A stretch of DNA of 64,000 bases from an uncultured Latescibacterota bacterium (GCA_951812755.1 OX638329.1:6003107-6067106), one strand, 5' to 3'; counted from the first letter of the stretch, positions 1,075 to 36,727 are shown. Translations and numbers: made by a program. The notes: generated by a model from the sequence alone, not told the origin.

Positions 1075-1088
1075 AGAGGAGTTTATCT

Positions 1089-1829
1089 ATGAAACCCCAA
1101 CGCCTGGATTTGTGCTACCACATTATTTGGCAAGGACGTTGGCATGTTGGCAGCGGCTATCAGTCGGCAGTAGCGGACCGCTTGTTGCGACGACTACCCA
1201 ATAATGCACCATTTGTTCCTGGCTCTCAGATCAAAGGTGTTTTGCGCCATCAATGCGAGCGGTTGGCATTGGCCCTTGGGCTCGAAGTGATCAATCCTCA
1301 TGCTGGCATTGAAGAAGACGAAAAAAATCTGATCAAGCATTTTACGCCGTTAAAAAAATCGGACCTGATGGTCGATAGATTATTTGGCAGTCGCTACCAG
1401 GGAGAGTGCCTGTTTGTGACGAATGCAGTGCCGATGTCGTCTGAGGTGGAAAGAGCGACTTCCGTACAGGCACGCACAGCCATTGATCGCGTCACGGGGA
1501 CTGTGATGGAACAACATTTATTCACAACCGAATTGACAGAAGGTGATGTCAACTTGCAGGGAAAAATTCGTGCACGGCATCCTGCTGGTGTTCTGACGCA
1601 GGATGAAGATAGCTTTCCGTATGAGTATGACCTTCTGATAGCAGCCCTGCTGTCGCTGGACGCTCTCGGCGGTGACAAGAGTCTTGGCCTTGGGAGGTGT
1701 AAGGTCCAAATCGAACCAGAGTCGTTGTATTGGAACGACAAACGCAGATCGTTAGATGAAGTTCTTCAGAGTTTCCATAATGAACCTGAAGAATGGGGCG
1801 AGATGCTGAAAATACTGCGCGAGGAGTGA
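1089..1829 (+). CDS. Cas7-family RAMP (Csm3-like)
   Basis: GAGGAG RBS before ATG 1089. Motifs HVGSG, FVPGSQIKGVLRH, LFGS, AIDRVTG and G-rich loop GGDKSLGLGRCKV. Confidence 0.75.
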   Translation: MKPQRLDLCYHIIWQGRWHVGSGYQSAVADRLLRRLPNNAPFVPGSQIKGVLRHQCERLALALGLEVINPHAGIEEDEKNLIKHFTPLKKSDLMVDRLFGSRYQGECLFVTNAVPMSSEVERATSVQARTAIDRVTGTVMEQHLFTTELTEGDVNLQGKIRARHPAGVLTQDEDSFPYEYDLLIAALLSLDALGGDKSLGLGRCKVQIEPESLYWNDKRRSLDEVLQSFHNEPEEWGEMLKILREE

Positions 1830-1834
1830 ATATC

Positions 1835-3073
1835 ATGAAAAAATTGCCTGTAACAGCAAAATTGCTTGCACCAGTGGCTATCAAACGCGATCGGCAATCT
1901 GAACGCTCTGAAAGTGTGCATTCTATAGCTGGGACGATGGTTCGCGGTGCCATAGCGGCTATCTATTTACAGCAACACGGAGAAGTAGATGATACCTTCA
2001 ATCATTTGTTCCTGGATGAGAACTCATGTCGATTCGGGCCATTGGATCCCGGCCCAAATTGCTTCCCATTAACTGCCGCAACGTGCAAACGGGAAGGGAT
2101 AGAGCATACTCTGGTGGACCAACTATGGTTTCGTATCGCCCAGCACCACCGGGCTGGCAGTGTACCCAATAATGCCGAAACGCCATGGCGTCAATGTGAT
2201 ACATGTGAGGCCGATTTGCAGAGCCTTAACGGTTTTTGGCAAGCAGAAAACGGCCATCCGCGGGAAAAAAGTAATGACCGGCAGCAGGTCGCCGCCCATG
2301 TTGGCATTGACCGTCACACCACCACTGCGGCGGAATCAATATTGTACACTCTTGAAGCCTTACAGCCTTCCGGACAAGAGGAAGACCTGTATGGCTGGCT
2401 CTGGGCCGACGACGATGCGCTTACTGCCTTGAAACAACTCTTGCAGAATGAAGATTATCGCATCTCGGTGGGCCACCATCGCACGCGCGGTTACGGAGAT
2501 CTGCACTTACAGTTGGGCAATCCTGTGAAGAAGAATGATTCGCAGCCATGCACAGAAGATTGGGAGCAATGGAACCGCGACCTGATTGCGTTTCTGAGTT
2601 CACCGCCACTTTCCGTTCCCGATCTCGACCCAGATAATTTTTACTTTAGTTTGTCGTTTCCCACTGGCGCAGTATTTGTGGACCGCTTTCTGTGTTATAC
2701 TCTCGATCCAGCAGACCTGATTTCATGGTTGCCGCCTATGCCTTCTGCCGATGCCGCGTTTCCAATTCAGAATCGTCCGACCCGACAACTCGCATCAGGG
2801 GGCACAATGTGCTGGATCGCTGCCGTAACCCGACATGAGCGTTTGCGCGGCTGGAATGCGGCTCACGGCTTGCCGCGTCAGGATGAATGGGCCACAGCAC
2901 GAGGATCAGTCTATGTTTACCGCTTTACAGGCACGGCCACAGAACGCGAGGAACTCATTGAACAACTTGCAACCTTGTCCGAAGAAGGCGTCGGTCTGCG
3001 GCGCAATGAAGGCTTTGGCAGGGTGATCGTGTCCGATAATTTCCATCGCCAATTTTGCAAACAGGAGGTGTAA
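1835..3073 (+). CDS. Csx10-like Cas5-family RAMP
   Basis: RBS GAGGAG, ATG 1835. IAGTMVRGAIAA near the N-terminus, C-terminal G-rich loop NEGFGRV. Size and position after cas10/cas7 match type III-D csx10. Confidence 0.6.
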   Translation: MKKLPVTAKLLAPVAIKRDRQSERSESVHSIAGTMVRGAIAAIYLQQHGEVDDTFNHLFLDENSCRFGPLDPGPNCFPLTAATCKREGIEHTLVDQLWFRIAQHHRAGSVPNNAETPWRQCDTCEADLQSLNGFWQAENGHPREKSNDRQQVAAHVGIDRHTTTAAESILYTLEALQPSGQEEDLYGWLWADDDALTALKQLLQNEDYRISVGHHRTRGYGDLHLQLGNPVKKNDSQPCTEDWEQWNRDLIAFLSSPPLSVPDLDPDNFYFSLSFPTGAVFVDRFLCYTLDPADLISWLPPMPSADAAFPIQNRPTRQLASGGTMCWIAAVTRHERLRGWNAAHGLPRQDEWATARGSVYVYRFTGTATEREELIEQLATLSEEGVGLRRNEGFGRVIVSDNFHRQFCKQEV

Positions 3074-3078
3074 TCGTG

Positions 3079-3495
3079 ATGGTCTTGAACAGCGATTTGA
3101 TCCAGAAAGTTGATCGCTACATTGACGAAAACCATAAAACGTTTTCAGAATTAGGAGATAGTTTCTTTGATGTATTTAGCTATGACAAAGGGAATGACCG
3201 CATCAGTACGCAAATTCGGAATCTGCAACAAATTACCTGCTCCGCCACGCGCTTTGCGGATATTGAGGATTTCGTAAAGAATCAGATGGGTAAAGAAAAA
3301 GAAGTCAAATGGAAGAGAGTTGGAGACAGCACTTTAAAAAAATTAAAGGAGTTGCGCGACAAAAGCCAGGAATTTGATTCCGATCCCGCTAACCAGATGG
3401 CACTGCGTCTGCGTCTCGCTCGTGGTTGGGTGCGTGCCGTAGTCAGTCAGTATCTCTATCGCGTTGCATGCGATCAAATGGGAGAGAGGTCATGA
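3079..3495 (+). CDS. Cas11-like small subunit, paralog 1
   Basis: AGGAGG RBS. About 138 aa, helical. ISTQIRNLQQI resembles the Csm2/Cmr5 signature seen in csm2 of this window (TTSQIRNVFGEV). Confidence 0.55.
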   Translation: MVLNSDLIQKVDRYIDENHKTFSELGDSFFDVFSYDKGNDRISTQIRNLQQITCSATRFADIEDFVKNQMGKEKEVKWKRVGDSTLKKLKELRDKSQEFDSDPANQMALRLRLARGWVRAVVSQYLYRVACDQMGERS

Positions 3496-4013
3496 CAGGC
3501 GTTGATTTACTATCTGATACCACCTACTGTGAACAGGCTGTTCGACAACTGGATCAACTATTGGGCGACATGAATCAATTCCCCGTAAAGCGCACGCAGA
3601 TCTACGGCCTGCGACAAATCGCCCGTCAGGAACCCAGAGAAGTTCAAAGATTTGCCAATCATCAGCGCGAGCGTGCCCAGCGCAAGCAGAAAAACGCCTC
3701 CGAAAACACCAAACCGAGATACCAGCCAGAAATCGATTTCTGGGCTCTGGTGGCCGATTTGTGCAGCAATTCGAGTTCTAATTGGTCTGTGGAAGAGGAA
3801 GGACACACCCACCTTCCGGAAGAACTACAAAATATTCCGGCAAGGCGAAAAGGCATGTCGCATGAGGAACAACGGTATTTAAACGAACTCAAGAGACATA
3901 GAAGGGAATTACTCGAACAATGGACAAACGAGCATATTCCAGCGTTTTTTGAACGGTTTTGTACACACGCTTTGTACCGCCTGGGAAAGCAAAAAAACTC
4001 GGAAAAGGAGTAA
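3492..4013 (+). CDS. Second Cas11-like small helical protein, paralog 2
   Basis: ATGA start/stop overlap with the previous gene. KRTQIYGLRQIA motif. Charged helical protein of 173 aa. Confidence 0.45.
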   Translation: MTGVDLLSDTTYCEQAVRQLDQLLGDMNQFPVKRTQIYGLRQIARQEPREVQRFANHQRERAQRKQKNASENTKPRYQPEIDFWALVADLCSNSSSNWSVEEEGHTHLPEELQNIPARRKGMSHEEQRYLNELKRHRRELLEQWTNEHIPAFFERFCTHALYRLGKQKNSEKE

Positions 4014-4016
4014 AAC

Positions 4017-4874
4017 ATGACGAATGACAATGCATTGGCTGCCGGTTTTGGATTGCAGCAAAAGATCCGCCTTACCACATTTCTTGTGTTTGACACTGCC
4101 TGGCGCATTGGCTCTGGTAAAGAAGGCGAAACCATGAGCGATTTGGGTGTGGTACTTGATCCTATAAGCCAACCAGTGCTTCCCGGTTCCTCTCTCAAGG
4201 GAAAATTGCGAAGCACCTGTGAAACCCTGTCACATGCGCTTGGATTGAGAGCCTGCATGTTGAATTACGAAGCAAGCGGTGTCAAATGTACAAGTGATGT
4301 GAATTACTATCACAATGTTCGTGGAACATATCAGGAAGCATTTCAAAAGGGGTTACGGGATCGCCTGCAATGGATTGAGGAGAACACCTGCGATGTGTGC
4401 AAGCTGTTCGGATCCCCAATGCAGGCAAGCCGGCTGTGTATAAGTGACGGCATGCTTAAAGAATGGGCGTCCGTTGTGCAGGTACGCGATGGCGTAGTAA
4501 TTGACCGCGATAGCCAGACGGCTGTCAATGGTCTCAAATACGACTATGAAGTCATCCCGTCCGGTAGCCGATTTGAAATTTGTATCGATCTCGAAAACCC
4601 AACGGACCAGGATATGGCCTTACTCGGTGCTGCTCTGTTTGAATGGCACTCTGGCAGCAGCATTGGGGGCTTTACAAGCCGTGGCCTCGGGCGCTTTCGT
4701 CTGGAGAATATTCAGCTTGCCGGTGTTAATATGTCCGACAGTGAGCAACGGATGAAGTTCCTGACTGCCACAAAGACTGAAGATCGCCTCAGCGATTTGG
4801 GTGATTGGGAAACCTACTTTACCGGACATATCAAACGGCAACTCTCGCCTGCCACCGAAATTGAGGAGAATTAA
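4017..4874 (+). CDS. Cas7 RAMP (Csm3/Cmr4-like)
   Basis: WRIGSG, LPGSSLKGKLRS, CDVCKLFGS, VRDGVVIDRDS and G-rich loop GGFTSRGLGRFRL. Confidence 0.85.
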   Translation: MTNDNALAAGFGLQQKIRLTTFLVFDTAWRIGSGKEGETMSDLGVVLDPISQPVLPGSSLKGKLRSTCETLSHALGLRACMLNYEASGVKCTSDVNYYHNVRGTYQEAFQKGLRDRLQWIEENTCDVCKLFGSPMQASRLCISDGMLKEWASVVQVRDGVVIDRDSQTAVNGLKYDYEVIPSGSRFEICIDLENPTDQDMALLGAALFEWHSGSSIGGFTSRGLGRFRLENIQLAGVNMSDSEQRMKFLTATKTEDRLSDLGDWETYFTGHIKRQLSPATEIEEN

Positions 4875-4876
4875 CC

Positions 4877-5836
4877 ATGTTGCGGAAATGGCTTTGTCAA
4901 GCTGATGTAAAAATCGCCATCGAACCGGTTGATCCGGTATTGATTAAGAGCGGCTATGCTACCAGGGATGGGGCAGATATGGTGCCTGTATCAACGTTTA
5001 GAAACGGTGAGAGAGTCTATTACTTTCCGGGCACATCCCTCAAAGGCGTGTTGCGTAGCCATTTGGAACGGATAGCTCGTACCTTGCAGCAAGGTAGCGT
5101 GTGTATTCCCTACTATGATCCAAAGAAAGACATTTCTATACCTGTTGCAGCGGAACTGCACTCCCATGGCTGTGGGTTTCGTTCACGAGGGGGAAGGAAT
5201 GGAGAGGCTGCATCGGCCAAGTACGCGGATTCGTGCGCTACGTGTCGAATGTTTGGTTCACTGAAATTTGGCGGACGTTTTAGCATTGGCGATGCCTACC
5301 CCTTGCGGGATTATGAACCCACTTTAGAAGCGCGCAACGCGGTGGGTATTGACCGTTTTACAGGTGGATCGGTATCAGGTGCTTTATTCGATCTGCAAGT
5401 GCTGGTTGGCGGTAAATTTGAAGCAAATCTGCGGTTGACAAATTTTGAACTCTGGCAATTGGCCGCTCTCAATTTGTTGTTTGCCGATCTACAAGACGAG
5501 ATGATTACCATTGGTTCGGGACGAAGTAGAGGACTCGGGCGCGTGCGCGGCACTGTCACTTCGTATTTTCTAACATACGTGCGGGAGGGGAGTCATCTTG
5601 AAGGTTTATACCAACTCGCAACCCCGGAGGAACAGCAAGCCTACCGGCTGCACAACTGGAAGCCCGACAATCCGATTGAGCTATCAACGCCAGAGTCGCA
5701 TGGCTTGCGGCAGGAATACGATCTGAGCTCTGATTGGCTCCAACATTTGCAACCGCTCGTTCCAGCCTTTGAGGCATTTTTACGGTGTCACGGCGGACCT
5801 CAAGGACAGGCATCCGGACAGGGGGATAGGTTATGA
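4877..5836 (+). CDS. Cas7 RAMP (Csm3/Cmr4-like)
   Basis: FPGTSLKGVLRSH, CATCRMFGS, AVGIDRFTGG, IGSGRSRGLGRVRG. Confidence 0.85.
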   Translation: MLRKWLCQADVKIAIEPVDPVLIKSGYATRDGADMVPVSTFRNGERVYYFPGTSLKGVLRSHLERIARTLQQGSVCIPYYDPKKDISIPVAAELHSHGCGFRSRGGRNGEAASAKYADSCATCRMFGSLKFGGRFSIGDAYPLRDYEPTLEARNAVGIDRFTGGSVSGALFDLQVLVGGKFEANLRLTNFELWQLAALNLLFADLQDEMITIGSGRSRGLGRVRGTVTSYFLTYVREGSHLEGLYQLATPEEQQAYRLHNWKPDNPIELSTPESHGLRQEYDLSSDWLQHLQPLVPAFEAFLRCHGGPQGQASGQGDRL

Positions 5837-6426
5837 CTGCCTTCTTAAAAACGGCGGATTTGACACCAGATCAGTTTCTCGATCTGATTACCAATCTCAA
5901 CCAGGATGACACACCCCAGCAACGGATCTGGCTGGAAGCACCTGATGGTTGGGCCTTCAATTGGTGGTGCGGCCTGGCTGGGGACCTCTGCTGGTGTGGT
6001 GCAGGCCGAGAGCCGGTTGAAAAATCTGCCCGTGATTGTCTGCCCCAGTCCACCTCCGGGCGATTGTTTGCGCCTGACGGTGAACTGCGCTGGCGCGTTA
6101 TTCCCTCTCTGGGGGAATCGTGCTGGCGTACCGTTTTCCTCGGTAACGCCGATTGGGTGGGTACTGCATTGGACGACTACTCAGATAGACTACATGATCT
6201 GCATCCACATCAGGACAGCTTTTTTTTGTGGGGCCAACAAACCGATGAGACGCCGGATGAGTGGATTGAATTACGCATCCCGCATCGCTTTCGCTATCCG
6301 ATTAGTGATAATCCTCGCAGTGTAAGCGTTGTGGTTGAGCAGTGGAACGACGATGCCAGCGAGCCTCACTTTGTCCGCTTGTGCGATCTCAAACCCTATC
6401 AGGAGAACAGTGATGCCGCAAGGTGA
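5833..6426 (+). CDS. Type III-associated protein of unknown function, in the position Csx19 occupies in III-D loci
   Basis: ATGA overlap with the upstream cas7. 197-aa Trp/Cys-rich protein with no motif I can name. The Csx19 assignment rests on position only. Confidence 0.45.
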   Translation: MTAFLKTADLTPDQFLDLITNLNQDDTPQQRIWLEAPDGWAFNWWCGLAGDLCWCGAGREPVEKSARDCLPQSTSGRLFAPDGELRWRVIPSLGESCWRTVFLGNADWVGTALDDYSDRLHDLHPHQDSFFLWGQQTDETPDEWIELRIPHRFRYPISDNPRSVSVVVEQWNDDASEPHFVRLCDLKPYQENSDAAR

Positions 6427-7501
6427 AAATTTCTGGAATCCTTATCGCTGGGTTCCCATCAGCGATCAGCCTGTAGAATACGGCGATCTACCTTATCAAC
6501 ATGTAGTGAGCGATCTTTCCGGCCGTTTCTGGTGCGAACTCGAAGCTCTGACGCCATTTATCGTCGGTGACGGACATGGGGTGTTTGTCGAGCATTCCCA
6601 TAATTTTCGTCCTTACATTCCGGCCACTTCGCTTAAGGGTGCAATACGTTCTCTCGCAGAAGTCATCGGCAATGCAGCCGTGCCGTTTTCAAATGTTTCG
6701 GTAGATAGCCAGCATGCACTGACGCGGGCACGCAACAACTCAAAACTTGACACAGTAGCCAGAACATTTGGCTATTTGGATCGTGGCAATGTCTTCGCTG
6801 GCTTGATACGCTTTAGTGACGCGGAAATCACCGAAGAACCGCTACCGCCAAACCGATGGCCAAAGTACGATGTCGCTGTCGGTCAGCCCAGACCGAGCCA
6901 TACCGCGTTTTATCCGGGGAAGAATCAACGCAAGTTCTATCACCATCGTCCCGGTGCCACACAGCTTATTGCACCACACGCTGGGATTAAGACGACTAAC
7001 GTACAACCTGCACCTCCCGGCACGCGCTTTAGCTTTACGGTGAATTTTGCGAATCTACGCAATCCTGAACTCAATTTGCTGCTCTACTGTCTGATGCTCG
7101 AAGAACAGGTCGCTGTCACGCTAAGCCCTGCGGCACTGGGTCGTGACGAGGCTGAAGGATCAGTCACATTAGATGGACCGTTGCGCCACAAAATGGGAGG
7201 TGCCAAACCTCACGGTGCTGGTTCTGTGCGTATTCGTATTATCAAGATGGAGTTGTGTGCAGATGCGATGGCACGTTATCGGGGTAGTGATACTGTCGAA
7301 ACATGGGAAGCAGAAGACCTTACGAATGAACTCGAAAGTCGTACCGCATCATTTCGGGGACGTACCGATCAAACCATGCAAGAATTACGCGCCATGTTGA
7401 TCTACTCTCTCAATGATCCCAGAAAGCCGATTCAGTATCCGACCTATGGATGGTTTCGGAATGGAAACAATTCAGGCAGGCAGTTAAAACCTACAATATA
7501 G
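6413..7501 (+). CDS. Large RAMP protein (Cas7-like, possibly the III-D TIGR03986-type or Csm5-like subunit)
   Basis: AGGAGA RBS, ATG 6413. IPATSLKGAIRS, TFGYL, G-rich loop MGGAKPHGAGSVRIRI. Confidence 0.7.
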   Translation: MPQGENFWNPYRWVPISDQPVEYGDLPYQHVVSDLSGRFWCELEALTPFIVGDGHGVFVEHSHNFRPYIPATSLKGAIRSLAEVIGNAAVPFSNVSVDSQHALTRARNNSKLDTVARTFGYLDRGNVFAGLIRFSDAEITEEPLPPNRWPKYDVAVGQPRPSHTAFYPGKNQRKFYHHRPGATQLIAPHAGIKTTNVQPAPPGTRFSFTVNFANLRNPELNLLLYCLMLEEQVAVTLSPAALGRDEAEGSVTLDGPLRHKMGGAKPHGAGSVRIRIIKMELCADAMARYRGSDTVETWEAEDLTNELESRTASFRGRTDQTMQELRAMLIYSLNDPRKPIQYPTYGWFRNGNNSGRQLKPTI

Positions 7502-7516
7502 TGGAAGGAATTACTC

Positions 7517-9352
7517 ATGAAAACAGAGCCAGACCAGGCGTCGGGTGTGCCGCATATTTTATTGACCAGCCTGGGGACCAGAGCTATTGCAACGAAATAC
7601 CAGTTGGATGACCGAACAGTTACCGCTTCGCTTACCCCGCTGGCGTTGGTGCAACTTCTTGACCCGTCGGAGCGGCCCAATCGCGTTGTCGCGATGGTCA
7701 CGGAAGGAGCCAGGGGTGAAACATGGGAACCCTTCAAAAATGGAATCTGTAAGACCCTCGATTTTGAACCCCAACTCATTTCGATACCCGATGGTAGTAG
7801 CAGCGAGGAAGTTCGTCAGATTCTCGAAAAGGTGGCTCAGGAAATTCCAGAAGGTGCAGAACTCACGCTTGATGTCACGCAGGGGATGAGACACTTCCCA
7901 TTCATCTTCTACGCACTGGTGCTCTACCTCACATCGCTTCGGAATGTAAAGGTTCGCGGTGCGTACTATGGGATGATCGAAGGAACTTCACAAGACTCGC
8001 CCAGACCCATCATTGATTTGCAGCCATTACTCGCATTGCCAGAGTGGTTCCATGCCGTGCGGGTGTTCCGTGATCAGGGGACGACCTCGGCAATGGCGCA
8101 ACTCCTTGAGCCGTTGGCAGAAAAATTGAAGCAGGAAACCGGGACACTGTTTAAGGCCGGGGATAAGAGTGCTGGTCAAAAATGTAGCGCGCAACTCAAG
8201 CAAGTTAAAGATGCTGTTGAGTTGCTGGAAAAGCATGCGTTTGCTTATGAGTCTGCCTTGCCACTGGAATTGGGAAAGGCCAGTTTGCGTCTCATTGATC
8301 CGATTAGGAAAATCGCTGGCATGGATACCGCCAATCTTCCACCGCTTTTTGCCGAGCTAACGGATACCATCGTTGACGTGGCAAAAAAAGCGACTTTTAC
8401 AAACCCGATACCCAACAAGGGGGTATGGAAACAAAACATCGGTTTGGATGAGAACGAGTTGAAGCGTCAAGCTCGTATGATTGATTTGTATCTGGACCGC
8501 GATCAACTCCCGCTGGCGGCTGGTCTGATGCGCGAGTGGGTAGTCTCCTGGCTCATCATGCAGCACTCAGACCAGCCCCAGGACTGGTTGAAGCATCCTG
8601 TACGCCAGAAATATGAGCGAAGGCTGGGTGCGCTTGGAGCATTAGAGAAAGATCCGTTCGTTACGCCAGAAGGTTCTGACGACATCTATCTCGAAGAAAA
8701 CGATTTTGGAGCATTAGAGAGAGATCCGTTCGTTACGCCGGAGCAGCGAGATTTCGGGAATTTCTGGAATCAACTGACACAACAGTTGCGAAATGCTCTG
8801 CACCACCATGCCATGCGCGAAGAGGCCCTCGAAGAGCCACCCAAACCCCTTGAAACGGTTCGGCATTTTTGGAATAAACTAAAAGCTGGAAAAATAGACC
8901 TGCCACAATTGGGCGGTGGTGGTGGCCGGCTGTTGCTTTCACCGCAGGGAACGCGACCGGGCGTATTGTTCTCAGCATTAAAGGTCGCCGAACCCGATAC
9001 CTGTCTGGTGATTTGTTCAGATGCGTCGGCGGATAGTATTCCCAATGCTGCCAGCCGTGCTGAATTTGAAGGTGACATTAGGCGGATCGAATTGGCAGAT
9101 CCACACGGCGGTTTTGCTGAAATTGATGCAGCAGCAGAACGTGTCCGTCGCGATCTGTTGAATGCCGATGAAGTCCTGGCCAATATGACCGGTGGTACCA
9201 CACTGATGGGCCTCGTTATCCAACGTCTGGTCGAAGAGGCACAAAAGCTGGACCGCACGGTGCAACGCTTTGCCCTCATTGATCGCCGTCCGCCCACCGA
9301 GCAAGACGGCGATCCGTTTGTGCAAAGCGACTGTCACTGGCTTGACGGCTGA
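7517..9352 (+). CDS. csx1: Csx1-like CARF-HEPN effector with an extra C-terminal CARF-like domain
   Basis: N-terminal ILLTSLGT and a DxTHG-type motif DVTQGMRHFP. HEPN-like RNALHH (R425). C-terminal LLLSPQGTRPG ... NMTGGTTLMG second CARF-like unit from about aa 470. Confidence 0.7.
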   Translation: MKTEPDQASGVPHILLTSLGTRAIATKYQLDDRTVTASLTPLALVQLLDPSERPNRVVAMVTEGARGETWEPFKNGICKTLDFEPQLISIPDGSSSEEVRQILEKVAQEIPEGAELTLDVTQGMRHFPFIFYALVLYLTSLRNVKVRGAYYGMIEGTSQDSPRPIIDLQPLLALPEWFHAVRVFRDQGTTSAMAQLLEPLAEKLKQETGTLFKAGDKSAGQKCSAQLKQVKDAVELLEKHAFAYESALPLELGKASLRLIDPIRKIAGMDTANLPPLFAELTDTIVDVAKKATFTNPIPNKGVWKQNIGLDENELKRQARMIDLYLDRDQLPLAAGLMREWVVSWLIMQHSDQPQDWLKHPVRQKYERRLGALGALEKDPFVTPEGSDDIYLEENDFGALERDPFVTPEQRDFGNFWNQLTQQLRNALHHHAMREEALEEPPKPLETVRHFWNKLKAGKIDLPQLGGGGGRLLLSPQGTRPGVLFSALKVAEPDTCLVICSDASADSIPNAASRAEFEGDIRRIELADPHGGFAEIDAAAERVRRDLLNADEVLANMTGGTTLMGLVIQRLVEEAQKLDRTVQRFALIDRRPPTEQDGDPFVQSDCHWLDG

Positions 9353-9370
9353 GTGAGATGAGAAGTTGAG

Positions 9371-9451
9371 AACCGCCTTGCAACTGTCTGAGAGAGAAGA
9401 AATAACACAGACGGGATCAGGCTGGACCACCAAACTATTGAGGTATTGAAC
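9371..9451 (+). repeat. Orphan leader-proximal fragment (45 nt) plus a solitary degenerate CRISPR repeat (36 nt)
   Basis: 9371-9415 versus 17944-17988 has 4 mismatches in 45. 9416-9451 versus the consensus repeat has 8 substitutions and 1 deletion. Confidence 0.75.
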
Positions 9452-9482
9452 CTCAAGATCAAATCAATGTAAGGAGTAAATT

Positions 9483-10115
9483 ATGAGCCAAGAATTGACA
9501 GAAAGCAAAATTAGACAGACCCTGGACTGGGCTTATGATAAAGCCGTAAATGGGATAGCAGGTTCTAAGACAGCACAACAATTTGCAGAAGATTATCTTT
9601 CCAAGAATGGTTCTCTGCATGATCAGGCAAACTCTCTTATTAGATGGCAGACCACAAAAGCAGGAACGTCAGGATTTTTGACAGGTCTTGGTGGCCTTCT
9701 TCTGATGCCAGTAACTATTCCTGCTGATCTTGCAAGCGTATTATATATCCAAATCAGAATGATTGCCGCGATTGCATATATGGGCGGGCATGACTTAAAA
9801 AATGATAAGGTGCGATCATTAGTCTATGTCTGTCTTGTAGGAAATTCTGCAAGAGAGATAATCAAAGACCTGGGAATCGTGCTTGGAACCAAACTGACAA
9901 CGCAAGCAATCAGAAAAATCTCAGGAAAAACCATTATTGCAATCAACCAGAGAGTTGGATTTCGGCTACTGACAAAGTTTGGAGAGAAAGGTGTGGTTAA
10001 TTTGGGAAAAACTGTTCCACTTGCCGGTGGTGTTGTGGGAGCTATTGCTGATTCAGTGCCTACCAAAATAATTGGCAACGTAGCGAGAGACACCTTTATT
10101 GGATCGAAAGCATAG
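9483..10115 (+). CDS. EcsC-family protein
   Basis: AAGGAG RBS. TKAGTSGFLTGLGGLLLMPVTIPADL, IQIRMIAAIAYMGGHDL and GFRLLTKFGEKGVVNLGKTVPLAGGVVG match my recollection of the EcsC family pattern. Confidence 0.65.
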   Translation: MSQELTESKIRQTLDWAYDKAVNGIAGSKTAQQFAEDYLSKNGSLHDQANSLIRWQTTKAGTSGFLTGLGGLLLMPVTIPADLASVLYIQIRMIAAIAYMGGHDLKNDKVRSLVYVCLVGNSAREIIKDLGIVLGTKLTTQAIRKISGKTIIAINQRVGFRLLTKFGEKGVVNLGKTVPLAGGVVGAIADSVPTKIIGNVARDTFIGSKA

Positions 10116-10242
10116 CAGTCTATTTCAATAATTATGCGGGATTGTATCTACATTTACCTGTCATTATTTATTTGTCATTCCAATTCAGTTCCTAACCATT
10201 CCTAACTACTGACCTCTCGCCCTTATAGGTAGTATGCATGGG

Positions 10243-10272
10243 AATGATTTGCAAAGTAATGATTTGCAAAGT
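10243..10272 (+). promoter_or_regulatory. Perfect 15-bp tandem direct repeat (AATGATTTGCAAAGT x2), each with a TTTGCAAA palindrome. Candidate operator in front of csm1.
   Basis: Read directly from the sequence. It ends 22 nt before the csm1 ATG. Confidence 0.35.
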
Positions 10273-10293
10273 GTTGAAAGGAGAGCCAGCAAG

Positions 10294-12675
10294 ATGGCTG
10301 AACGAGATGCTTTAATTTTGGGTGCTCTGTTGCACGATATAGGGAAGTTTTGGCAGCGGTCAGGTATCCGCAGAAAGCATGAACACCTGGGAGCAGAATT
10401 TTTGGATTTGCCAGTGATTCGAAACAAGATCGAAACACTGGTTGACCTTCGAGATGTTCAAAACATCATTTCTGAACACCATGAATCGGGTGTATATGAT
10501 GTGCTGGTTCGCATAGCTCAGGTTGCTGACCGTCTTGCTTCTGGCGAACGCCGTGCCCTGGGAGAGGGCCAAACGCAGACGCCGTGGGAGGAGCCGTTGA
10601 AATCCGTTTTCGCACAGATTTACGACCAGGAAAAGGGACTTTCAAAAGCATCTTATCCCACGCAAAAGCTATCGCTAAATAGGGAAACCATCTTTCCACG
10701 CGAAAATGTGCGCCCGGATTACGACAGCCTTTGGCAAGAATTTTTGGATGAAGCAGAGCAACTGCCGAGTGGAGATTTTGAGATATTTTTTGAATCCCTT
10801 TTTTACCTCCTAAAAAAATATACATGGTGTGTACCCAGTGCAGCATACAGGGACCACGCGGATATTTCGCTGTTTGATCACAGCAAGGTGACAGCAGCCA
10901 TTGCGTGGTGTCTCTATGAGTTGCGCGATCGGTTAGAACCTGTGGAACAGTTTGTATCGAACCGCGGAGGAAACGGAACAGCACCAGTCGCACTTCTCGT
11001 TGGTGGCGATATTTCAGGCATTCAATCATTCATCTATTCGATTTCTTCAGATGGTGCCGCAAAGAGCCTGCGCGGACGCTCTGTCTTTCTCAATCTGCTG
11101 AGTGATGCAGTTATGGAATACGCAATACAACAGTTGGGAAATCCACCCATCTGCAACTTGCTCTACAGTAGTGGGGGCCATTTCTATTTTTTAACTTCTG
11201 TTGACCAGTTGGAAAACGTAAAGCGCGTTAAAAAAGAAATTTCAGAGTGCCTTTTTGACGCTTTTGGAACTGAAATTTATTGTGGACTTGAAGCCGTGAG
11301 CCTTGCAGCTATAGATTTCCAGCGCGAAGCGGGCAATCGGGAAGGCAAGCTCAATATTGGAGACCGATGGAAAGAATTGATGGAAAAACTCGGGATGTGT
11401 AAACGACAAAAATTTGGCGATCTGATGCCTGAGCGATTTGATGATTTCTTTGAGCCTGTGGGTAGCGGTAAGGTGGATGATGTTTGCACGGTTTGCCATG
11501 TTGAAATATCGCAAGCAACTCGACGCACAATAGCAGAACGTACAGAGGACGATTCAGTTGTATGTTCGCTTTGCCACAGTTTTGAGCGACTGGGAGATGA
11601 TGTAAGGAAAGCAAAGTATCTGATGACCCGTGATGTTTCGCCCCAGAAATTTCGGGTGATAACGTGGGGGCGTGCCCTTGAAGGATTAGGACGCCGTTAT
11701 CAGTTTTCGCCTGATTTGGAGTCGAATTGGGATCGTGCCTATACGCTGGACAATACGGAGTTTTTGTCGGTTGGCGCACAGGGATTTCGTTTTGTAGGCA
11801 ACGCCGCCCCTATTGACAAAAAAACCAGCCATGTACGGGACTTCAGCGACCTCGCTGACGCCTCAAAAGGGATTCCCCGCTGGGGTTTGTTGAGGATGGA
11901 TATTGATAACCTGGGCAAAATATTCAGTGAGGGACTGGGCAAGGATTTGTCTCTCTCACGTATCACAACCTTGAGTTCAATGGTCTCGTTGTTCTTTGAA
12001 GGGTATGTGAATACGCTCTGTAAAGATACCGACCCAGACCGATTGTATGTGATCTATACAGGAGGCGATGATTCATTCATCGTTGGATCGTGGGATGCCG
12101 CGCTTGATTTCGTACAGAAATTGCAAATGGATTTTCAAAATTACACCTGTGACAATCCAAAAGTAACGCTCTCGGCTGCTCTGACGCTTGAAGCCCGGAA
12201 ATATCCGCTCTATAAAGCCGCAGACCGTTGCGGTGAGTGGCTGGACCTGGCAAAAGATCAAAAAGATGATGTCCGAGGTCTTGAGAAATCCAGCTTTACA
12301 TTTCTCGGACAACCGATATTCTGGCATGATTTTGAGCCTATTGAACAGATGAAACATGTGATCGTCAATCTGGTGAGCGATGGCGGACGTAGCTTGCTTC
12401 AGCGACTCATGTCAGCCTACAAACTGTATGAAGAAAACAAGCAACACTTGTCATCCCAATCATTGAGCCGAGATAAGTTGAACCGGCTGGTTCAAAATGA
12501 TCGGTGGCGGTGGCAACTGGCTTACAGTCTGGCCAGAGAAGCAGAGAGGTCAAAGTCACAGCGAAAGGAGGGTTTAAAGCACCTCCAAACCATGATTTTT
12601 AATCAAAATTTCATCGAATTTCTACACATTGCGACCCGATGGTCCGAACTGGCAACACGAAAACAAGGAGAGTGA
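10294..12675 (+). CDS. csm1: Cas10/Csm1 with N-terminal HD domain (type III-A)
   Basis: RBS AAAGGAGAG. HD motifs LHDIGKF and SEHHE. LLVGGDISGIQSFIY, SSGGHFYFL, LLRMDIDNLGKIF, IYTGGDDSFIVGSWD. Confidence 0.92.
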   Translation: MAERDALILGALLHDIGKFWQRSGIRRKHEHLGAEFLDLPVIRNKIETLVDLRDVQNIISEHHESGVYDVLVRIAQVADRLASGERRALGEGQTQTPWEEPLKSVFAQIYDQEKGLSKASYPTQKLSLNRETIFPRENVRPDYDSLWQEFLDEAEQLPSGDFEIFFESLFYLLKKYTWCVPSAAYRDHADISLFDHSKVTAAIAWCLYELRDRLEPVEQFVSNRGGNGTAPVALLVGGDISGIQSFIYSISSDGAAKSLRGRSVFLNLLSDAVMEYAIQQLGNPPICNLLYSSGGHFYFLTSVDQLENVKRVKKEISECLFDAFGTEIYCGLEAVSLAAIDFQREAGNREGKLNIGDRWKELMEKLGMCKRQKFGDLMPERFDDFFEPVGSGKVDDVCTVCHVEISQATRRTIAERTEDDSVVCSLCHSFERLGDDVRKAKYLMTRDVSPQKFRVITWGRALEGLGRRYQFSPDLESNWDRAYTLDNTEFLSVGAQGFRFVGNAAPIDKKTSHVRDFSDLADASKGIPRWGLLRMDIDNLGKIFSEGLGKDLSLSRITTLSSMVSLFFEGYVNTLCKDTDPDRLYVIYTGGDDSFIVGSWDAALDFVQKLQMDFQNYTCDNPKVTLSAALTLEARKYPLYKAADRCGEWLDLAKDQKDDVRGLEKSSFTFLGQPIFWHDFEPIEQMKHVIVNLVSDGGRSLLQRLMSAYKLYEENKQHLSSQSLSRDKLNRLVQNDRWRWQLAYSLAREAERSKSQRKEGLKHLQTMIFNQNFIEFLHIATRWSELATRKQGE

Positions 12676-12678
12676 GAT

Positions 12679-13137
12679 ATGGCAATGCACTGGAGGGATA
12701 TTGTGTCTGAGGATAGACAAAGAGGAAGAAAGAATTATTCACTAAACAAAAAAGGTGCGGAGCTGATTTCAAGCGTTATCAAACAAAAAGACCAGACAGA
12801 TAAACTGGTAGATATTGCAGAAACACTAGGCCGGTTTTTAGCGGAAGGTTATAACGAGGCAATTACAACATCCCAAATCCGAAATGTTTTTGGCGAAGTT
12901 CGAAAGACCGAGATGGAATGGAAACGGGACTCTGAAGCAAGTTGGGTACGCTTACAACTTCTGCGTCCTAAACTGGCATATACAGCAAAAAAAGATAATA
13001 AAGCTCGAGCGATTATTTTTCGAGACGTGCTTTCTACTGCTATACTCAATGTTGAGGGCAACTCCGAAAATTTTCAACGATTTGTCAATCTTTTTGAAGC
13101 AATTCTCGCTTACCATCGCGCATCCGGTGGAAGATAA
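12679..13137 (+). CDS. csm2: Csm2 (Cas11 small subunit)
   Basis: 152-aa helical protein with TTSQIRNVFGEV, positioned between csm1 and csm3. Confidence 0.8.
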   Translation: MAMHWRDIVSEDRQRGRKNYSLNKKGAELISSVIKQKDQTDKLVDIAETLGRFLAEGYNEAITTSQIRNVFGEVRKTEMEWKRDSEASWVRLQLLRPKLAYTAKKDNKARAIIFRDVLSTAILNVEGNSENFQRFVNLFEAILAYHRASGGR

Positions 13138-13158
13138 AAAACGAATAGGAGCAATACT

Positions 13159-13992
13159 ATGAACACATTGGATTTTTTTCAGAATTGGCAAGGCAAAGTG
13201 ATGATTTCAGGTTGTTTGGAAGCAGTCACGGGCCTCCACATTGGAGGATCGGAGACGGGTATCGAAATCGGTGGTGTGGATAATATCATTATTCGACAAC
13301 AGTCAGATGGTCGCCCCTATATTCCGGGCAGTTCGCTCAAGGGAAAGATGAGAAGCCTGACTGAACGGGCGCACAATAAGAGGCTTATTGAAGTAGTGCG
13401 TGGACGCAACCCTATTCGGCAGCATCAATGCGATGATAACGAACCTGAAGTCTGCGAGGTCTGCAAAGTATTTGGCTTGCCGGGACAACGGAGGAACAGC
13501 CAGCCCACTCGATTAATCGTGCGAGATGGCAAGCTACTGGACGAGTTATATGTTACAGAGCCAAACGGTAAACGAAATCTTCGAAACTGGGATGATTCCA
13601 ATGTGGATACAGACATGCCGTTCTCCGAGGTAAAAAACGAGGTTGCCATTGATCGGATTACGTCAGCCGCAATGCCGCGTCCGGTTGAGCGCGTGCCCGC
13701 AGGTGCTCGGTTCAGTTATGACATGGTATTCGATATTTTTGAAGATGCGGACAAAGATCATTTGGGCCTTGTCTTTGAAAGTATGCGCCTACTGGAAAAC
13801 GACTACCTCGGTGGATATGGTTCGCGCGGTTCGGGACAAATTCGTTTTGAGTCCGTCAAAATCACCTGGCGATCTAAAACCGATTATCGGTCAGGTGGTA
13901 GTGGCACAGTGGTTGGCGATAATCTGGATTTGAGTGAAATAGCAGAAAAATTTGAAACAGAGATCAAGACCAAACTGAACGGAGTGGCGTGA
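13159..13992 (+). CDS. csm3: Csm3 (Cas7)
   Basis: LHIGGS, YIPGSSLKGKMRS, CEVCKVFG, AIDRITSAA, GGYGSRGSGQIRF. Confidence 0.9.
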   Translation: MNTLDFFQNWQGKVMISGCLEAVTGLHIGGSETGIEIGGVDNIIIRQQSDGRPYIPGSSLKGKMRSLTERAHNKRLIEVVRGRNPIRQHQCDDNEPEVCEVCKVFGLPGQRRNSQPTRLIVRDGKLLDELYVTEPNGKRNLRNWDDSNVDTDMPFSEVKNEVAIDRITSAAMPRPVERVPAGARFSYDMVFDIFEDADKDHLGLVFESMRLLENDYLGGYGSRGSGQIRFESVKITWRSKTDYRSGGSGTVVGDNLDLSEIAEKFETEIKTKLNGVA

Positions 13993-15014
13993 TGGATGTA
14001 TCTTATCTGCTGGTACGCCTTCAACCGCTCGCGCCGTTTCATCTTGGGAAACGGGGCATCGGTTTGGAGGAGACAGAGACATTTGTGCATGCAGATACCC
14101 TGTTTAGCGCGCTGTGCAATGTCTGGGTGCGCTGTTTTGGTCGAGACGATCTTGAGAATCGGTTCTTGCCATCGGTAGAAACCAGTGAAAATGGCTCACT
14201 TTTCCAAATTTCATCAGCGTACCCCTATGCCAATGATGTGCTATTTTTTCCCAAACCGCTTTCGCCTTTGCCTGTGCAAAATGTCGATTCCAAAAAACTC
14301 AAGCACTGCCGGTTTATTTCAGAACAGATTTTCAGGGATCTAATTCATGGACGCGAAATTGTCCCGGCTTCGCAGGATAGGATATTCTGGTTATCGCAAG
14401 CAGAGCAAGATACGCACGCACAATTTGACGATCAGTTTCATATCTGGCAGGAAACAGAAGTCCCTCGTGTATCACTGGATCGCGTAACGCAGGCGTCTAA
14501 CATCTTTTATTTTAGCCAAGTGACATTCGCAGAGGGATGTGGTCTATTTTTTTTGGTGAATCTGGATGCATCTTTGAGACCCGATTTTGAGATGGCTATT
14601 CGCGTCCTTGGTGATACAGGCATTGGTGGAGACCGCACGGCAGGATACGGTCAATTTGAACCCCAATTCTCGAAATTCACGCTGAATATCCCTGATAACG
14701 CTTCTCAAGCCGTAACCTTATCGCTTTTGTCTCCTCGAAACCGGGCGGAACTCTCAAATTATCTCGGAGAACAGAGTGCGTACGAACTGATTCGGCGCGA
14801 TGGATGGATTGATTCTCCAGATGGGCGGAACTACAGGCGGCGTGCCTGCCTGATGTTTGCGGAAGGTAGTGTGATAAACCGATCTGAAAATGGCATGATG
14901 GGACGGCTTGTGGATGTGACGCCAACGGCTCCTGAAGTACAGTTGACACACTCGGTTTATAGATACGGCATTGGATTCCCCGTACCGATTTGCCTGCGAG
15001 AGGAAGGTGTTTGA
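13992..15014 (+). CDS. csm4: Csm4 (Cas5-family RAMP)
   Basis: TGATG overlap with csm3. LAPFHLGKRG ... HADTLFSALCNVW N-terminus. GIGGDRTAGYGQF G-rich loop. Confidence 0.85.
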   Translation: MDVSYLLVRLQPLAPFHLGKRGIGLEETETFVHADTLFSALCNVWVRCFGRDDLENRFLPSVETSENGSLFQISSAYPYANDVLFFPKPLSPLPVQNVDSKKLKHCRFISEQIFRDLIHGREIVPASQDRIFWLSQAEQDTHAQFDDQFHIWQETEVPRVSLDRVTQASNIFYFSQVTFAEGCGLFFLVNLDASLRPDFEMAIRVLGDTGIGGDRTAGYGQFEPQFSKFTLNIPDNASQAVTLSLLSPRNRAELSNYLGEQSAYELIRRDGWIDSPDGRNYRRRACLMFAEGSVINRSENGMMGRLVDVTPTAPEVQLTHSVYRYGIGFPVPICLREEGV

Positions 15015-15015
15015 T

Positions 15016-16305
15016 ATGGCTAATGCAGTAAAAAAATACCGCGTAAAAGTTCTGACACCTGTTCATATCGGCACTGGAGAAGAACTACAAGAAAACCTGG
15101 ATTTTTACGTCAAGAATAATCGAGTTCGCGTACTGGATTTTGACCGTTTGATAGTGGCGTGTGAACAGGCTGGTATTGATCCAATGCCTTATGTTGAAGA
15201 AGGTCGTCTGGATAATTTGTTCAATTCCAGCGCAGTGTCGCAACCCAAACCAGATATTGATCCTCGCTGGGCCAAGCTGGCTGCTTTGCAAACCGGGAAT
15301 CAAGCCCAGGCGCAATTAGAGATAGATGACGGACTTGCTTATCAAGCACAGATTCAGGCCGTAAATAGACCGCAGACTATTTTGTCTCAGATCAAAACGG
15401 CCTCATCGCTGGGGTATATCCCGGGAAGTTCGGTTAAAGGAGCAATACGAACTATTTTGGCACGCCATTTGATGAACGACGACGCTGTGCGGTCTCAAGT
15501 GGCAAGGCAACTCCGTGACCAGGGTCCCAGAGCATGGCAGCGACGAGCAGGGCAAGATATGGAAAAGAAATTATTTGGTCGCAATCCCAATTATGATCTC
15601 GGTCGAGTAATTCAGGTGACAGATGTGGGTCCCGGTGCGCGTGTTCAGGTGACAGAAGTACTGATCGCTGACATGGATCGAAACGAACGACTTCGCTGGA
15701 AAAACCTGAGCAATCATCGCATTGTGAGCGACCCGAGACAAGGTACTTCAATTTTTTGCGAATGCCTGCCTGTGGGCATGGAACTTCTTACAGAGATTCG
15801 GATTGATCAGTGGTTGCTGGAACATCGAGCACTTGGATTTAATACCCATCGCGACCTGATATTGCAGTTCGAATCCCTATGCCGCGCCCAGGCCAAATCA
15901 CATCTGGAAAGAGAAACTATGTTTTTCCGAAAAGGGGGCATGAATGACCTGTCTTCTTTCTGCGAAAAGCAATTGCTGCCTCTAACAGAAACAGATTCAG
16001 GGTTCATACTTCGCGTGGGATGGGGCACAGGATGGGAAGACAAAACAGCCGGGGATAATCTGGATACTTCTCTAAAAGAAAATTTGCGACGCTGGTATGA
16101 GTTGGGTAAAATGGTGCATAAGGGATGTAATGGAGATGTAAACAGGTGGAGGGGCAGTTATTCATGCAGGCGATGTCGAAAAAACAAACTTACAGTATCT
16201 CAAATTGACCTGATCTCTCCATTTCCAAAAACGCGGAAAATTGCATTTGCAAACCAAAAGCCAGCCTACCCAATGGGATGGTTGGCTTTTGAAGCCATTT
16301 CTTAG
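15016..16305 (+). CDS. csm5: Csm5 (Cas7-like RAMP)
   Basis: LTPVHIGTGEEL, YIPGSSVKGAIRT, VGWGTGWEDKT. Position after csm4. Confidence 0.8.
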   Translation: MANAVKKYRVKVLTPVHIGTGEELQENLDFYVKNNRVRVLDFDRLIVACEQAGIDPMPYVEEGRLDNLFNSSAVSQPKPDIDPRWAKLAALQTGNQAQAQLEIDDGLAYQAQIQAVNRPQTILSQIKTASSLGYIPGSSVKGAIRTILARHLMNDDAVRSQVARQLRDQGPRAWQRRAGQDMEKKLFGRNPNYDLGRVIQVTDVGPGARVQVTEVLIADMDRNERLRWKNLSNHRIVSDPRQGTSIFCECLPVGMELLTEIRIDQWLLEHRALGFNTHRDLILQFESLCRAQAKSHLERETMFFRKGGMNDLSSFCEKQLLPLTETDSGFILRVGWGTGWEDKTAGDNLDTSLKENLRRWYELGKMVHKGCNGDVNRWRGSYSCRRCRKNKLTVSQIDLISPFPKTRKIAFANQKPAYPMGWLAFEAIS

Positions 16306-16337
16306 CTCAAAGTAGTTTATACAAGGACTGACACTTT

Positions 16338-16406
16338 ATGGCACATTTACTTATCACCACCGTTGGCATGTCTCTGCTGCCAAGTCCAAAGCGTTCTTAT
16401 AGGTGA
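16338..16406 (+). pseudogene. 22-codon remnant resembling a CARF-protein N-terminus
   Basis: MAHLLITTVGMSLLPS... with an AAGGA RBS. It parallels HTLLCTVGTSLLYP of the intact CARF gene 42 nt downstream, in another frame. Confidence 0.3.
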
Positions 16407-16447
16407 AATTTTCTATCCCAGTATTTTCAAGTGAAAGAGATTATCTT

Positions 16448-17575
16448 ATGCCTAAGCCTCACACACTTCTCTGCACTGTAGGAACCAGTCTGTTATATCC
16501 CAACTTATCTGGTCTCGTGCAGGCACCGCAGTCTGATCCAATTCAGGCGGCTTTGGCCGATGCTTTTTCCAAAAAGAATTGGTCAGAGGTAGCGATACAG
16601 CTACAAAAACTTGCGCCAACGGAGCGGCTTTGCGGTGCAGAGATCAACTCTGTAACAGACCTCCTCAAGCAGGGATTTATTGAACAAGTCCATCTCCATC
16701 TGCTCCATTCTGATACAGATGATGGACAGGTAATCGCGGAAATTTTGCAATTCTATTTTAAAGAGGATGGTTGGCAAGTAACGACCCATTGCGTGGAGGG
16801 CTTGCGCGACGATGACCCTCGCGCTTTCCGCACGCATGGCTTACGCAATCTGGCAAAAATCTTTGGAGAACGGGTGCGTGAAACTGGGACAGACTTTTGC
16901 GCGATTAACGCCACAGGCGGCTATAAAGCCCAGATCGCCATTGCCGTTCTGATGGGTCAAGCACTCGACATTCCAGTGTATTACAAGCATGAACGCTTTG
17001 ATGCCATTATCCCGTTTCCGCCTATGCCTGTGGCACTCGATTTTTCGATCTGGCAGCGGGCCAGCGGCATGTTTATGGTCCTCAGCAAGGAGGGTATTGT
17101 TCCCTGGGAGCAGTATCGTGAAGAATGGGATGAACGCTTTGAGACACTGGTCAACCGCGAGGAAATCGACGGCGAGGACTATCTGGAACTCTCCGCGACG
17201 GGTCAGATATTTCACGAGACCTTCCGAACCCGTTTTCAGCAGATAAAGGCTACCAGCCTACCGAGACCAGCAACAAAGAATGAGAAGCACGCACCCAATT
17301 TGGGCAACCATGGATACGGACAAGCGCGCACCCCCATTTTGCGGTTCCTGCAAAAACTCACAGATGAGATGCCTTACGTCCGATTTTGCCACTCAACGTA
17401 TTGGAACCCGGACCTGCCTGAATCGTCTCGGTTTCGGTCATCGGGCGAAGAAATCCAGGGCATATACTCCAACGGAACCTGGTGCGTGAAATTTAAGGTG
17501 CATACAACAACAGATGACCAGGATGTATTACCCGGCATTGTGGCTGATCTCAATGACTGGATAGAGGAAGTCTAA
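16448..17575 (+). CDS. CARF-domain protein (APE2256/Csm6-type CARF) with an unassigned C-terminal domain
   Basis: LLCTVGTSLL, CGAEINS, LLHSDTDDG, INATGGYKAQIAIAV. The last 150 aa or so have no clear Rx4-6H HEPN motif. Confidence 0.75.
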   Translation: MPKPHTLLCTVGTSLLYPNLSGLVQAPQSDPIQAALADAFSKKNWSEVAIQLQKLAPTERLCGAEINSVTDLLKQGFIEQVHLHLLHSDTDDGQVIAEILQFYFKEDGWQVTTHCVEGLRDDDPRAFRTHGLRNLAKIFGERVRETGTDFCAINATGGYKAQIAIAVLMGQALDIPVYYKHERFDAIIPFPPMPVALDFSIWQRASGMFMVLSKEGIVPWEQYREEWDERFETLVNREEIDGEDYLELSATGQIFHETFRTRFQQIKATSLPRPATKNEKHAPNLGNHGYGQARTPILRFLQKLTDEMPYVRFCHSTYWNPDLPESSRFRSSGEEIQGIYSNGTWCVKFKVHTTTDDQDVLPGIVADLNDWIEEV

Positions 17576-17684: not shown

Positions 17685-17988
17685 TTCAATGCAAAATAAG
17701 CACCTGTTTGGCAGGTTGCAGACTAATTCAAGCCAATAGATGCGACCCAGATGCATCTCTCAATGTCACACTGGCAGCTTGAGCGTGTAGCGAACAACGC
17801 GCGTGAGGATTAGAGGCATTTCCTCATGTTCTGGTGGGTCGCAAATTTCTAACTTTTTGCAGGAGTGTGTATTATGAACAGAGAATTGAATGCAGTTTTT
17901 CATTTTTGGGAGGATTTTGAGTGTCAAAATGGCCTGAGTCGCAAACCGCCTTGTAACTGTCTGCGAGAGAGGAAATAACACAGACGGT
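17685..17988 (+). promoter_or_regulatory. CRISPR leader. Candidate promoter TTCTAA-17 nt-TATTAT at 17847-17875.
   Basis: Non-coding stretch upstream of repeat 1. Orientation is set by the ATTGAAAC repeat 3' end and by the degenerate terminal repeat at the far end. The promoter is a weak motif match only. Confidence 0.45.
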
Positions 17989-21909: not shown

Positions 21910-22186
21910 AGGCCATTTTTGTGGTTGTACTTGTATTGTAGCCGGAGACTCTCTATCTTTTGAACACATCGTGACGAGTGGAAAACCGCTCTGATCCATC
22001 TGCTAATACTAATCAGATATAGCAATCTTGCATCAGGTTCTCGAAACTGGGTAATCGCGGCAGGGATGCCGCTCCCACAGTAAGCGAGTTGTAGGAGGGA
22101 AATCCTTTTCCCGACTCTGCGACAGCTTGAGCAGGCAACAGACCATGCATAGTTAATTCTTACGATTGGTATAAGCTATCAAGGAG

Positions 22187-36464: not shown

Positions 36465-36711
36465 CTGTTTTAAAACTCATTTTGCCCCTTCTCAGCTATG
36501 CGCTATTGCCCTGTCATTCTGAGCCTTTCGGCTTCGCTCAAGATAAACTCCGCGCAGCGGAGTCGAAGGAGCGGGGTATGAAGGCGAGTAAATCGAGCAT
36601 GACTGCGTAGCAGTTCATCTCTTACCAACTCAGGTGGAAAAGATGCTTCGGCTACGCTCAGCATGACAAAACGCCTGACATGCGTAACATCAGGTATTAA
36701 TTTTAAAACAG
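36465..36711 (+). repeat. Composite repeat (families B/C), upstream copy
   Basis: Aligns end to end with 38032-38242 apart from two internal indel blocks. Confidence 0.75.
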
Positions 36712-36727
36712 CTTCTAAGGAGAAAAC

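Follow-up and report, generated by a model that had tools for sequence, protein, structure and literature searches.

Type III CRISPR systems respond to infection with nucleases gated by cyclic oligoadenylate (cOA) and with a few membrane effectors. Among the latter, the membrane-associated accessory effectors Cam1, Csx23 and the CorA-type proteins carry, or partner with, a domain that senses cOA or SAM-AMP. A transcriptional branch of type III immunity has so far been seen, to our knowledge, only in subtype III-E (CASP-sigma). The EcsC family (Pfam PF12787) has its founder in Bacillus subtilis, whose EcsC is encoded in the ABC-transporter operon ecsABC.

An EcsC homologue was described by Strecker (2022) in the III-E CASP locus of Desulfonema ishimotonii (DiCASP), with a CASP-sigma motif in its promoter; the mention is brief and comes without a functional test (PMC10028731). 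EcsC-like (PF12787) genes also share operons with jukA, a sensor of jumbo phages, and have been proposed as swappable effectors beside it (bioRxiv 10.1101/2022.09.17.508391). In PADLOC the family appears as PDC-S29, a bioinformatic single-gene candidate whose definition includes no link to CRISPR, DUF1232 or sigma-54; it is listed, without a test, in a survey of S. thermophilus (PMC11514479), and no phage-resistance experiment with PDC-S29 was found in the literature searched. An earlier note on the DNA studied here, made from the sequence alone, had stated that no role of EcsC-family proteins in CRISPR immunity was described, which needs amending in view of the family's standing as the candidate PDC-S29 and of the III-E homologue already noted (PMC10028731).

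The window analysed is a stretch of 64,000 nucleotides from an uncultured Latescibacterota bacterium (OX638329.1:6003107-6067106). The gene under study, ecsC (9483-10115, plus strand), encodes a protein of 210 aa and starts with an ATG located 7 nt downstream of an AAGGAG ribosome-binding site. A Pfam HMM search confirmed the assignment to the EcsC family made in the earlier note: residues 9-205 align to positions 39-235 of the 240 of PF12787 with 47.6 bits (E 2.2e-12), above the gathering score of 30.4. This score is modest compared with the very strong, full-length match to the PADLOC PDC-S29 model PDLC04988 (290.8 bits, E 1.5e-87; residues 3-207 on positions 10-214 of 220, PADLOC-DB v2). 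The only matches of the protein in Pfam, NCBIfam and PADLOC were EcsC, PDC-S29 and PDC-S30, with no CARF or SAVED domain and no family of its own in NCBIfam, and a protein Atlas search returned EcsC clusters only. The protein shares PF12787 with EcsC of B. subtilis but, unlike in the ecsABC operon, it has neither ecsA nor ecsB beside it and is flanked by the cas genes csx1 and csm1; no ABC-transporter family was matched by any of the 19 main plus-strand ORFs scanned between 1 and 21300.

The AlphaFold2 model of EcsC (pLDDT 80.9) is all-alpha, with seven helices, of which the C-terminal one is glycine-rich, and a hydrophobic helix-Pro-helix hairpin at about residues 62-101; Gln90 and Arg92, inside the hydrophobic helix, are conserved. 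The hydrophobic, glycine-rich segments pointed out previously are therefore present, but as transmembrane helices they are borderline, the best 19-residue Kyte-Doolittle window reaching 1.69; among 70 relatives the median is 1.75, with 49 at 1.6 or above. Such features suggest an association with the membrane. A Foldseek search of the model against the PDB gave nothing at E <= 0.001, a wide VIA-align structure search reached at best Z 6.6, the noise level of helical bundles, and a profile search of the PDB returned 0 matches, so that the structural comparisons by Foldseek and VIA-align gave no clue to mechanism. EcsC resembles Cam1, Csx23 and the CorA-type proteins in its small size, its hydrophobicity and the place of its gene as an accessory gene in a locus that signals by cOA, as well as in the abortive response at the membrane that can be proposed for it. 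In contrast to them, it has no CARF or SAVED domain, its membrane insertion is putative and any coupling to the type III system would be transcriptional.

The surroundings of ecsC are shared by two type III modules, all on the plus strand. Positions 1-7501 encode the effector proteins of the III-D module, which Pfam and NCBIfam matches identify as Cas10d (C-terminal part), RAMPs, a protein weakly similar to Csx19 and a Cas7-type RAMP, and the III-D block has as its final cas gene csx1 (7517-9352; CARF-HEPN-CARF, 611 aa; PADLOC CARF2--CARF_HEPN_CARF, 457 bits). Beyond ecsC, csm1 starts at 10234 or 10294 and ends at 12675, with HD, Csm1_B and palm2 domains, and opens a III-A cassette identified by profile scans (csm1-csm5 plus a CARF7-DUF2103 gene, 10294-17575), followed by a leader (~17900-17987) and a CRISPR array of ~52 repeats of 37 nt (17988-21925). 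As claimed from the sequence, ORF and profile scans left ecsC as the lone sizeable plus-strand ORF between csx1 and csm1. The orphan repeat reported ahead of it is also real: 9364-9453 is 82% identical to 17937-18026, that is, to the first repeat of the array and the ~53 nt of leader that precede it, and thus consists of a vestigial leader end (9364-9415) and a single decayed repeat (9416-9452), which ends 30 nt ahead of the ecsC start codon and retains the ATTGAAC(C) 3' tag region. No sigma-54 site was found in the window directly before ecsC, and the promoter and terminator scans gave results at chance level.

Comparison with relatives indicated on which side ecsC belongs. Forty relatives lack the gene; 20 of these are congeners, including G013 of the same genus, which has a homologous csm cassette, and G001 and G014, which have csx1. 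The csm1-5/CARF7/leader/array cassette of G013 is 85-90% identical to that of the genome studied here (G000), and a blastn alignment of the window with the G013 locus (L174) begins, at 90% identity, at window position 10275. In G013, a cas6-like gene lies 45 nt before csm1 (itself 90% identical), in the place taken here by ecsC, whereas the G000 counterpart of this cas6 (6000639-6001571, 90% identical) is found ~1.5 kb before the window start. As the homology with G013 stops upstream at the cas6 stop codon and resumes at 10275, a block of ~11.8 kb lies here between cas6 and csm1. From its sequence, the block comprises a predicted sigma-54 promoter, a DUF1232 membrane-protein gene, the III-D genes, csx1, the relic of leader and repeat, ecsC and an AT-rich spacer (10116-10274, plus strand), which forms the right-hand end of the block and is unique to this genome. 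A perfect 15-bp tandem repeat (AATGATTTGCAAAGT x2, 10243-10272) abuts the breakpoint at 10275.

Contigs from two sponge metatranscriptome runs point the same way, as they are ~93% identical to the window over the csx1 end, the relic and the whole of ecsC. Contig X19, from an RNA library, spans window 9216-10115, and both X19 and X20 diverge immediately after the ecsC stop codon (10115), so the conserved unit is csx1-relic-ecsC and not ecsC-csm1. With cas6 directly followed by csm1 in the sister species G013, ecsC does not appear to be a component of the III-A cassette in this genus. The earlier proposal of an accessory gene between two type III modules was right as to position, but the affinity of the gene appears to be with the III-D/csx1 side and not with csm1. 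In the contig of a related strain, the relic is ~88% identical compared to ~95.6% for ecsC, and because it has diverged more than the gene, the relic looks vestigial. The RNA-library origin of the contigs is a weak hint that the ecsC region may be transcribed. The low GC of ecsC (~41% compared to ~50% in the flanks) fits a recent, separate acquisition of the gene.

The start of the block was analysed in the region upstream of the window (L180, G000:C1:5995000-6003200, from 8.1 kb before the window up to its first position). The order found was a CARF activator gene, a sigma-54 site, cas6, an enhancer-like GTGCAGAACTGCACG, a second site TGGCACGCGGATTGC, a DUF1232 gene and the start of cas10d. 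The activator (L180 3471-5357, 628 aa) combines CARF, Sigma54_activat and HTH domains, and the two -24/-12 sites (L180 5577-5591 and 6719-6733) are perfect matches to TGGCAC-N5-TTGC, for which 0.02 would be expected. The DUF1232 ORF (L180 6800-7153) opens the III-D block and is preceded by a -24/-12 promoter motif (6719-6733), an enhancer-like site and a nearby activator gene, and so the block looks sigma-54-dependent, with the promoter ~11 kb upstream of ecsC. The first ~60-80 codons of the activator ORF match window positions 36498-36740 and 38065-38253 (95% over 63 aa), which coincide with the dispersed repeat families D10 and D15; this match indicates that the true start of the activator is probably further in and that the repeat may be a small mobile or REP-like element. 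A second DUF1232-like gene (24939-25448, plus strand) was found past the array as a tblastn paralogue of the upstream ORF (49% identity over 116 aa), in an AT-richer island.

A parallel arrangement was found in G141, a genome of the same class but of a different family. There, the locus (L165) runs cas6, CARF activator, three copies of TGCAGAATTGCAC (0.04 expected), TGGCACGCAGATTGC located 34 nt ahead of the next ORF, DUF1232 and ecsC, which is followed after a gap of only 22 nt by a III-D cas7, a CARF-PD-(D/E)xK gene, cas10d and cas5/7. The G141 activator has the Pfam domains Cas_NE0113 (CARF), Sigma54_activat and HTH_8 and is 75% identical to that of G000; the DUF1232 proteins are 76% identical and the EcsC proteins 66%, with the same PDC-S29 score. 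From this layout, ecsC of G141 is predicted to be operonic with cas7, behind a putative sigma-54 promoter next to the CARF activator, and a set of regulator, promoter, DUF1232 and ecsC is thus common to two genomes of different families. Both activators match the RtcR-like PADLOC model RtcR_PspF2--CARF_AAA_HTH (281 bits), for which no description of target promoters or of a DUF1232/EcsC output was found in the literature. A strict sigma-54 motif within 700 nt upstream of EcsC was present in none of the 134 sampled loci with enough upstream sequence, which argues that the wiring is specific to these III-D systems, and no sigma-54 activator was found beside EcsC in G257, G583, G484 or L079. G141 also has a second, intact EcsC copy (49% identical) without cas matches nearby and a third split in two pieces ~1.3 kb apart (L166, G141:C1:1348500-1368499; L167, G141:C1:3241500-3261499).

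The locus described in III-E resembles the present one, by its published description, in having an EcsC-family gene in a type III locus, with a predicted activation of that gene by a transcription factor that responds to infection. It differs in subtype and in using a protease/sigma-factor relay and another regulator. The jukA operons have another sensor and no CRISPR, and the effector role of EcsC is likewise a proposal there.

The EcsC family itself is large, with 3571 near-length relatives at E <= 1e-5 and 1661 clusters at the 50% level, and it occurs on 339 plasmid records compared to only two phage records. The closest homologues of the protein (P0002-P0009) are 79-99% identical to it. 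Many relatives are 60-72% identical across phyla, which indicates frequent transfer, and fusions to AAA_15/21 ATPase, DUF4268, GNAT or protein-kinase domains occur in some members of the family. In six non-CRISPR loci (L035, L152/153, L090, L014 and L089), the gene immediately before EcsC encodes DUF1232. Many cyanobacterial PDC-S29 copies are split or carry in-frame stops (G712, G861, G664, G895, G761), suggesting that the gene often decays in cyanobacteria. An EcsC gene (58% identical) was matched in about 280 plasmid records of Klebsiella; on one IncFIB plasmid (L169, 5219-6648) it follows a DUF2971 gene, beside a Ter/VWA/PP2C/kinase cluster.

How often EcsC sits in CRISPR loci was assayed in several samples. 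A first census with the window's Cas proteins (tblastn and phmmer) was too insensitive and missed III-B loci. In a broad sample of 79 species-representative and 80 metagenome loci, of which 156 had a called EcsC gene, CRISPR features lay within 10 kb of EcsC in two: L079, with the order array, ecsC (frameshifted), Card1-like CARF, nuclease, cas10 and RAMPs, and L105, with the order RT-Cas1, array, TPR protein, cas6 and ecsC. Between array and cas6-ecsC, L105 encodes two ~310-aa ORFs without family match in addition to the TPR protein of 755 aa (4796-9790). As the Pfam Cas10 palm model weakly matches GGDEF proteins, Cas10 was counted only at 44 bits or more; by this threshold, 14 of 50 EcsC-bearing genomes had a clear Cas10, which lay on the same contig as EcsC in one (L079). 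What looked like short arrays after EcsC in contigs from the gut turned out to be Sel1-repeat genes and was rejected.

Closer to home, both of the ecsC-carrying genomes among the 168 of the phylum have the gene in III-D loci. Outside it, on two plasmids from two Allochromatium species, a III-B locus has EcsC flanked by csm6 on one side and by the cmr genes, with a radical-SAM cluster, on the other. The genes between cmr6 and EcsC there (L168 4281-7860, L170 7753-9850) encode radical-SAM, radical-SAM/SPASM and small hypothetical proteins, and this conserved cluster is possibly an additional accessory set. Of 401 Thermodesulfobacteriota genomes sampled evenly, six had the family, and in three of the six (G257, G583 and G484) EcsC lies no more than 8 kb from RAMP genes or arrays; the three copies belong to a divergent subfamily with related repeats and so may represent one lineage. 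On the minus strand of G583 (L178 10950-11000), a degenerate last repeat, a strong intrinsic terminator and two GGAAACGTT precede the EcsC-like gene, and the GGAAACGTT motifs could mark a regulated promoter. Among 401 cyanobacterial genomes, nine had EcsC and none of these near RAMP genes.

Taken together, type III-linked EcsC was found in ~7 lineages (this genome, G141, Allochromatium, L079, L105, Thermodesulfobacteriota and the published III-E case), covering III-A/D, III-B, III-D and III-E loci and one beside an RT-Cas1 array. Six type III-linked copies require five changes on a quick maximum-likelihood tree of the family, and they are thus scattered, although the tree has a weak backbone, with which one common origin would formally be compatible. 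The association with type III is recurrent, extends across subtypes and concerns a minority of the family, as judged from raw counts of EcsC loci. The census suggested in the earlier note thus gave a divided answer, with recurrence in type III loci of unrelated lineages but only 2 of 156 loci in the broad sample and 0 of 9 in cyanobacteria.

Part of these data can also be explained if ecsC is an independent passenger, that is, a self-contained mobile EcsC/PDC-S29 gene, either defensive or selfish, that inserts at defence islands and CRISPR recombination seams and receives no input from type III. The GC of ecsC below that of its flanks and the same tendency of the family in high-GC hosts, its absence from the 40 relatives, the many plasmid records, neighbourhoods that vary among type I R-M, PARIS, DRT and AbiL genes, transposases and integrases, with no universally conserved neighbour in the sampled loci, and an adjacency to type III loci of only a few percent are what such a gene would show. 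It accounts less well for the G141 copy, operonic at 22 nt from cas7 with a putatively CARF-activator-controlled promoter ahead, for the III-B position kept in two Allochromatium species, for the CASP-sigma motif reported before the III-E homologue (PMC10028731), and for the regulator/promoter/DUF1232/ecsC set common to two families of one class. For these reasons a passenger seems to us somewhat unlikely. A different explanation, that EcsC has a general housekeeping role in the envelope or under stress and is neutral cargo at this locus, agrees with the synteny of Bacteroidales and Dysgonomonas EcsC with redoxin, SOD, MFS transporter and M3 peptidase genes, with the ABC-transporter operon of the founding Bacillus gene, and with the literature searched, which gave a listing of PDC-S29 and no defence phenotype. 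However, the recurrence in type III loci of ~7 lineages, the fusions to AAA_15/21 ATPase or DUF4268, the frequent transfer implied by 60-70% identity across phyla and the several copies that are pseudogenes are traits of accessory genes more than of core genes, making a role outside defence improbable.

The decayed repeat ahead of ecsC raises still another alternative, a CreTA-like guard, in which the mRNA of ecsC would be processed or masked by Cas6 and the type III complex through the repeat, so that EcsC, as a toxin, would be made only upon loss or inhibition of the CRISPR machinery. A repeat or array end does lie upstream of ecsC in the transcribed orientation here (30 nt), in L079 (~130 nt) and in G583, and the relic has kept its 3' tag region. 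Nevertheless, between strains the relic is less conserved than ecsC (~88% vs. ~95.6% identity), which gives the idea low odds; the RNA fold of the relic region (z -0.88) is no better than that of shuffled sequence, a strong terminator separates array and gene in G583, and most type III-linked copies, such as those of G141 and Allochromatium, have no repeat ahead. A guard of this kind is very improbable.

The reading that we prefer is that ecsC is an effector-type gene whose product is probably directed to the membrane, often accompanied by DUF1232 and tied to the III-D system through co-expression or induction, to which we assign a probability of about 0.5. As EcsC has no cOA sensor, its coupling to type III would have to be of this kind. 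Given the recurrence of the family in type III loci and the place of ecsC at the end of a III-D block that starts with a putative CARF/sigma-54 switch, the gene is a plausible candidate helper in CRISPR immunity. Upon encounter of the type III complex with a target RNA, Cas10 would make cyclic oligoadenylate, which the CARF activator may bind and sense, increasing sigma-54 transcription of the block. Transcription induced in this way could reach ecsC, and DUF1232 and EcsC would then act at the membrane as a dose-dependent effector pair leading to growth arrest or abortive infection, as a possible backup to the RNases Csx1 and the CARF7 protein.

A broader version of this proposal, which we consider unlikely and advance only tentatively, is that type III signalling has a transcriptional output arm, leading from cOA through the CARF-sigma-54 activator and the sigma-54 promoter to DUF1232 and EcsC as an inducible pair of membrane effectors. 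In III-E, CASP-sigma would relay to EcsC instead, and EcsC would be a general plug-in effector for different sensors: type III-A, B, D and E systems, JukA and AAA_15/21 ATPases. As far as we found, the spread of EcsC over type III subtypes, its partnership with DUF1232 and the CARF-activator/sigma-54 wiring in two genomes are new.

Should the wiring fail, ecsC would be another hitch-hiker in a defence island. If the proposal is true, it would provide the first function for the large and mobile EcsC/PDC-S29 family and account for the presence of EcsC beside several different defence sensors, and III-D immunity would gain a transcriptional arm. This locus and that of G141 offer a compact and testable case, in which DUF1232 and EcsC, both small and hydrophobic, are the likely outputs.
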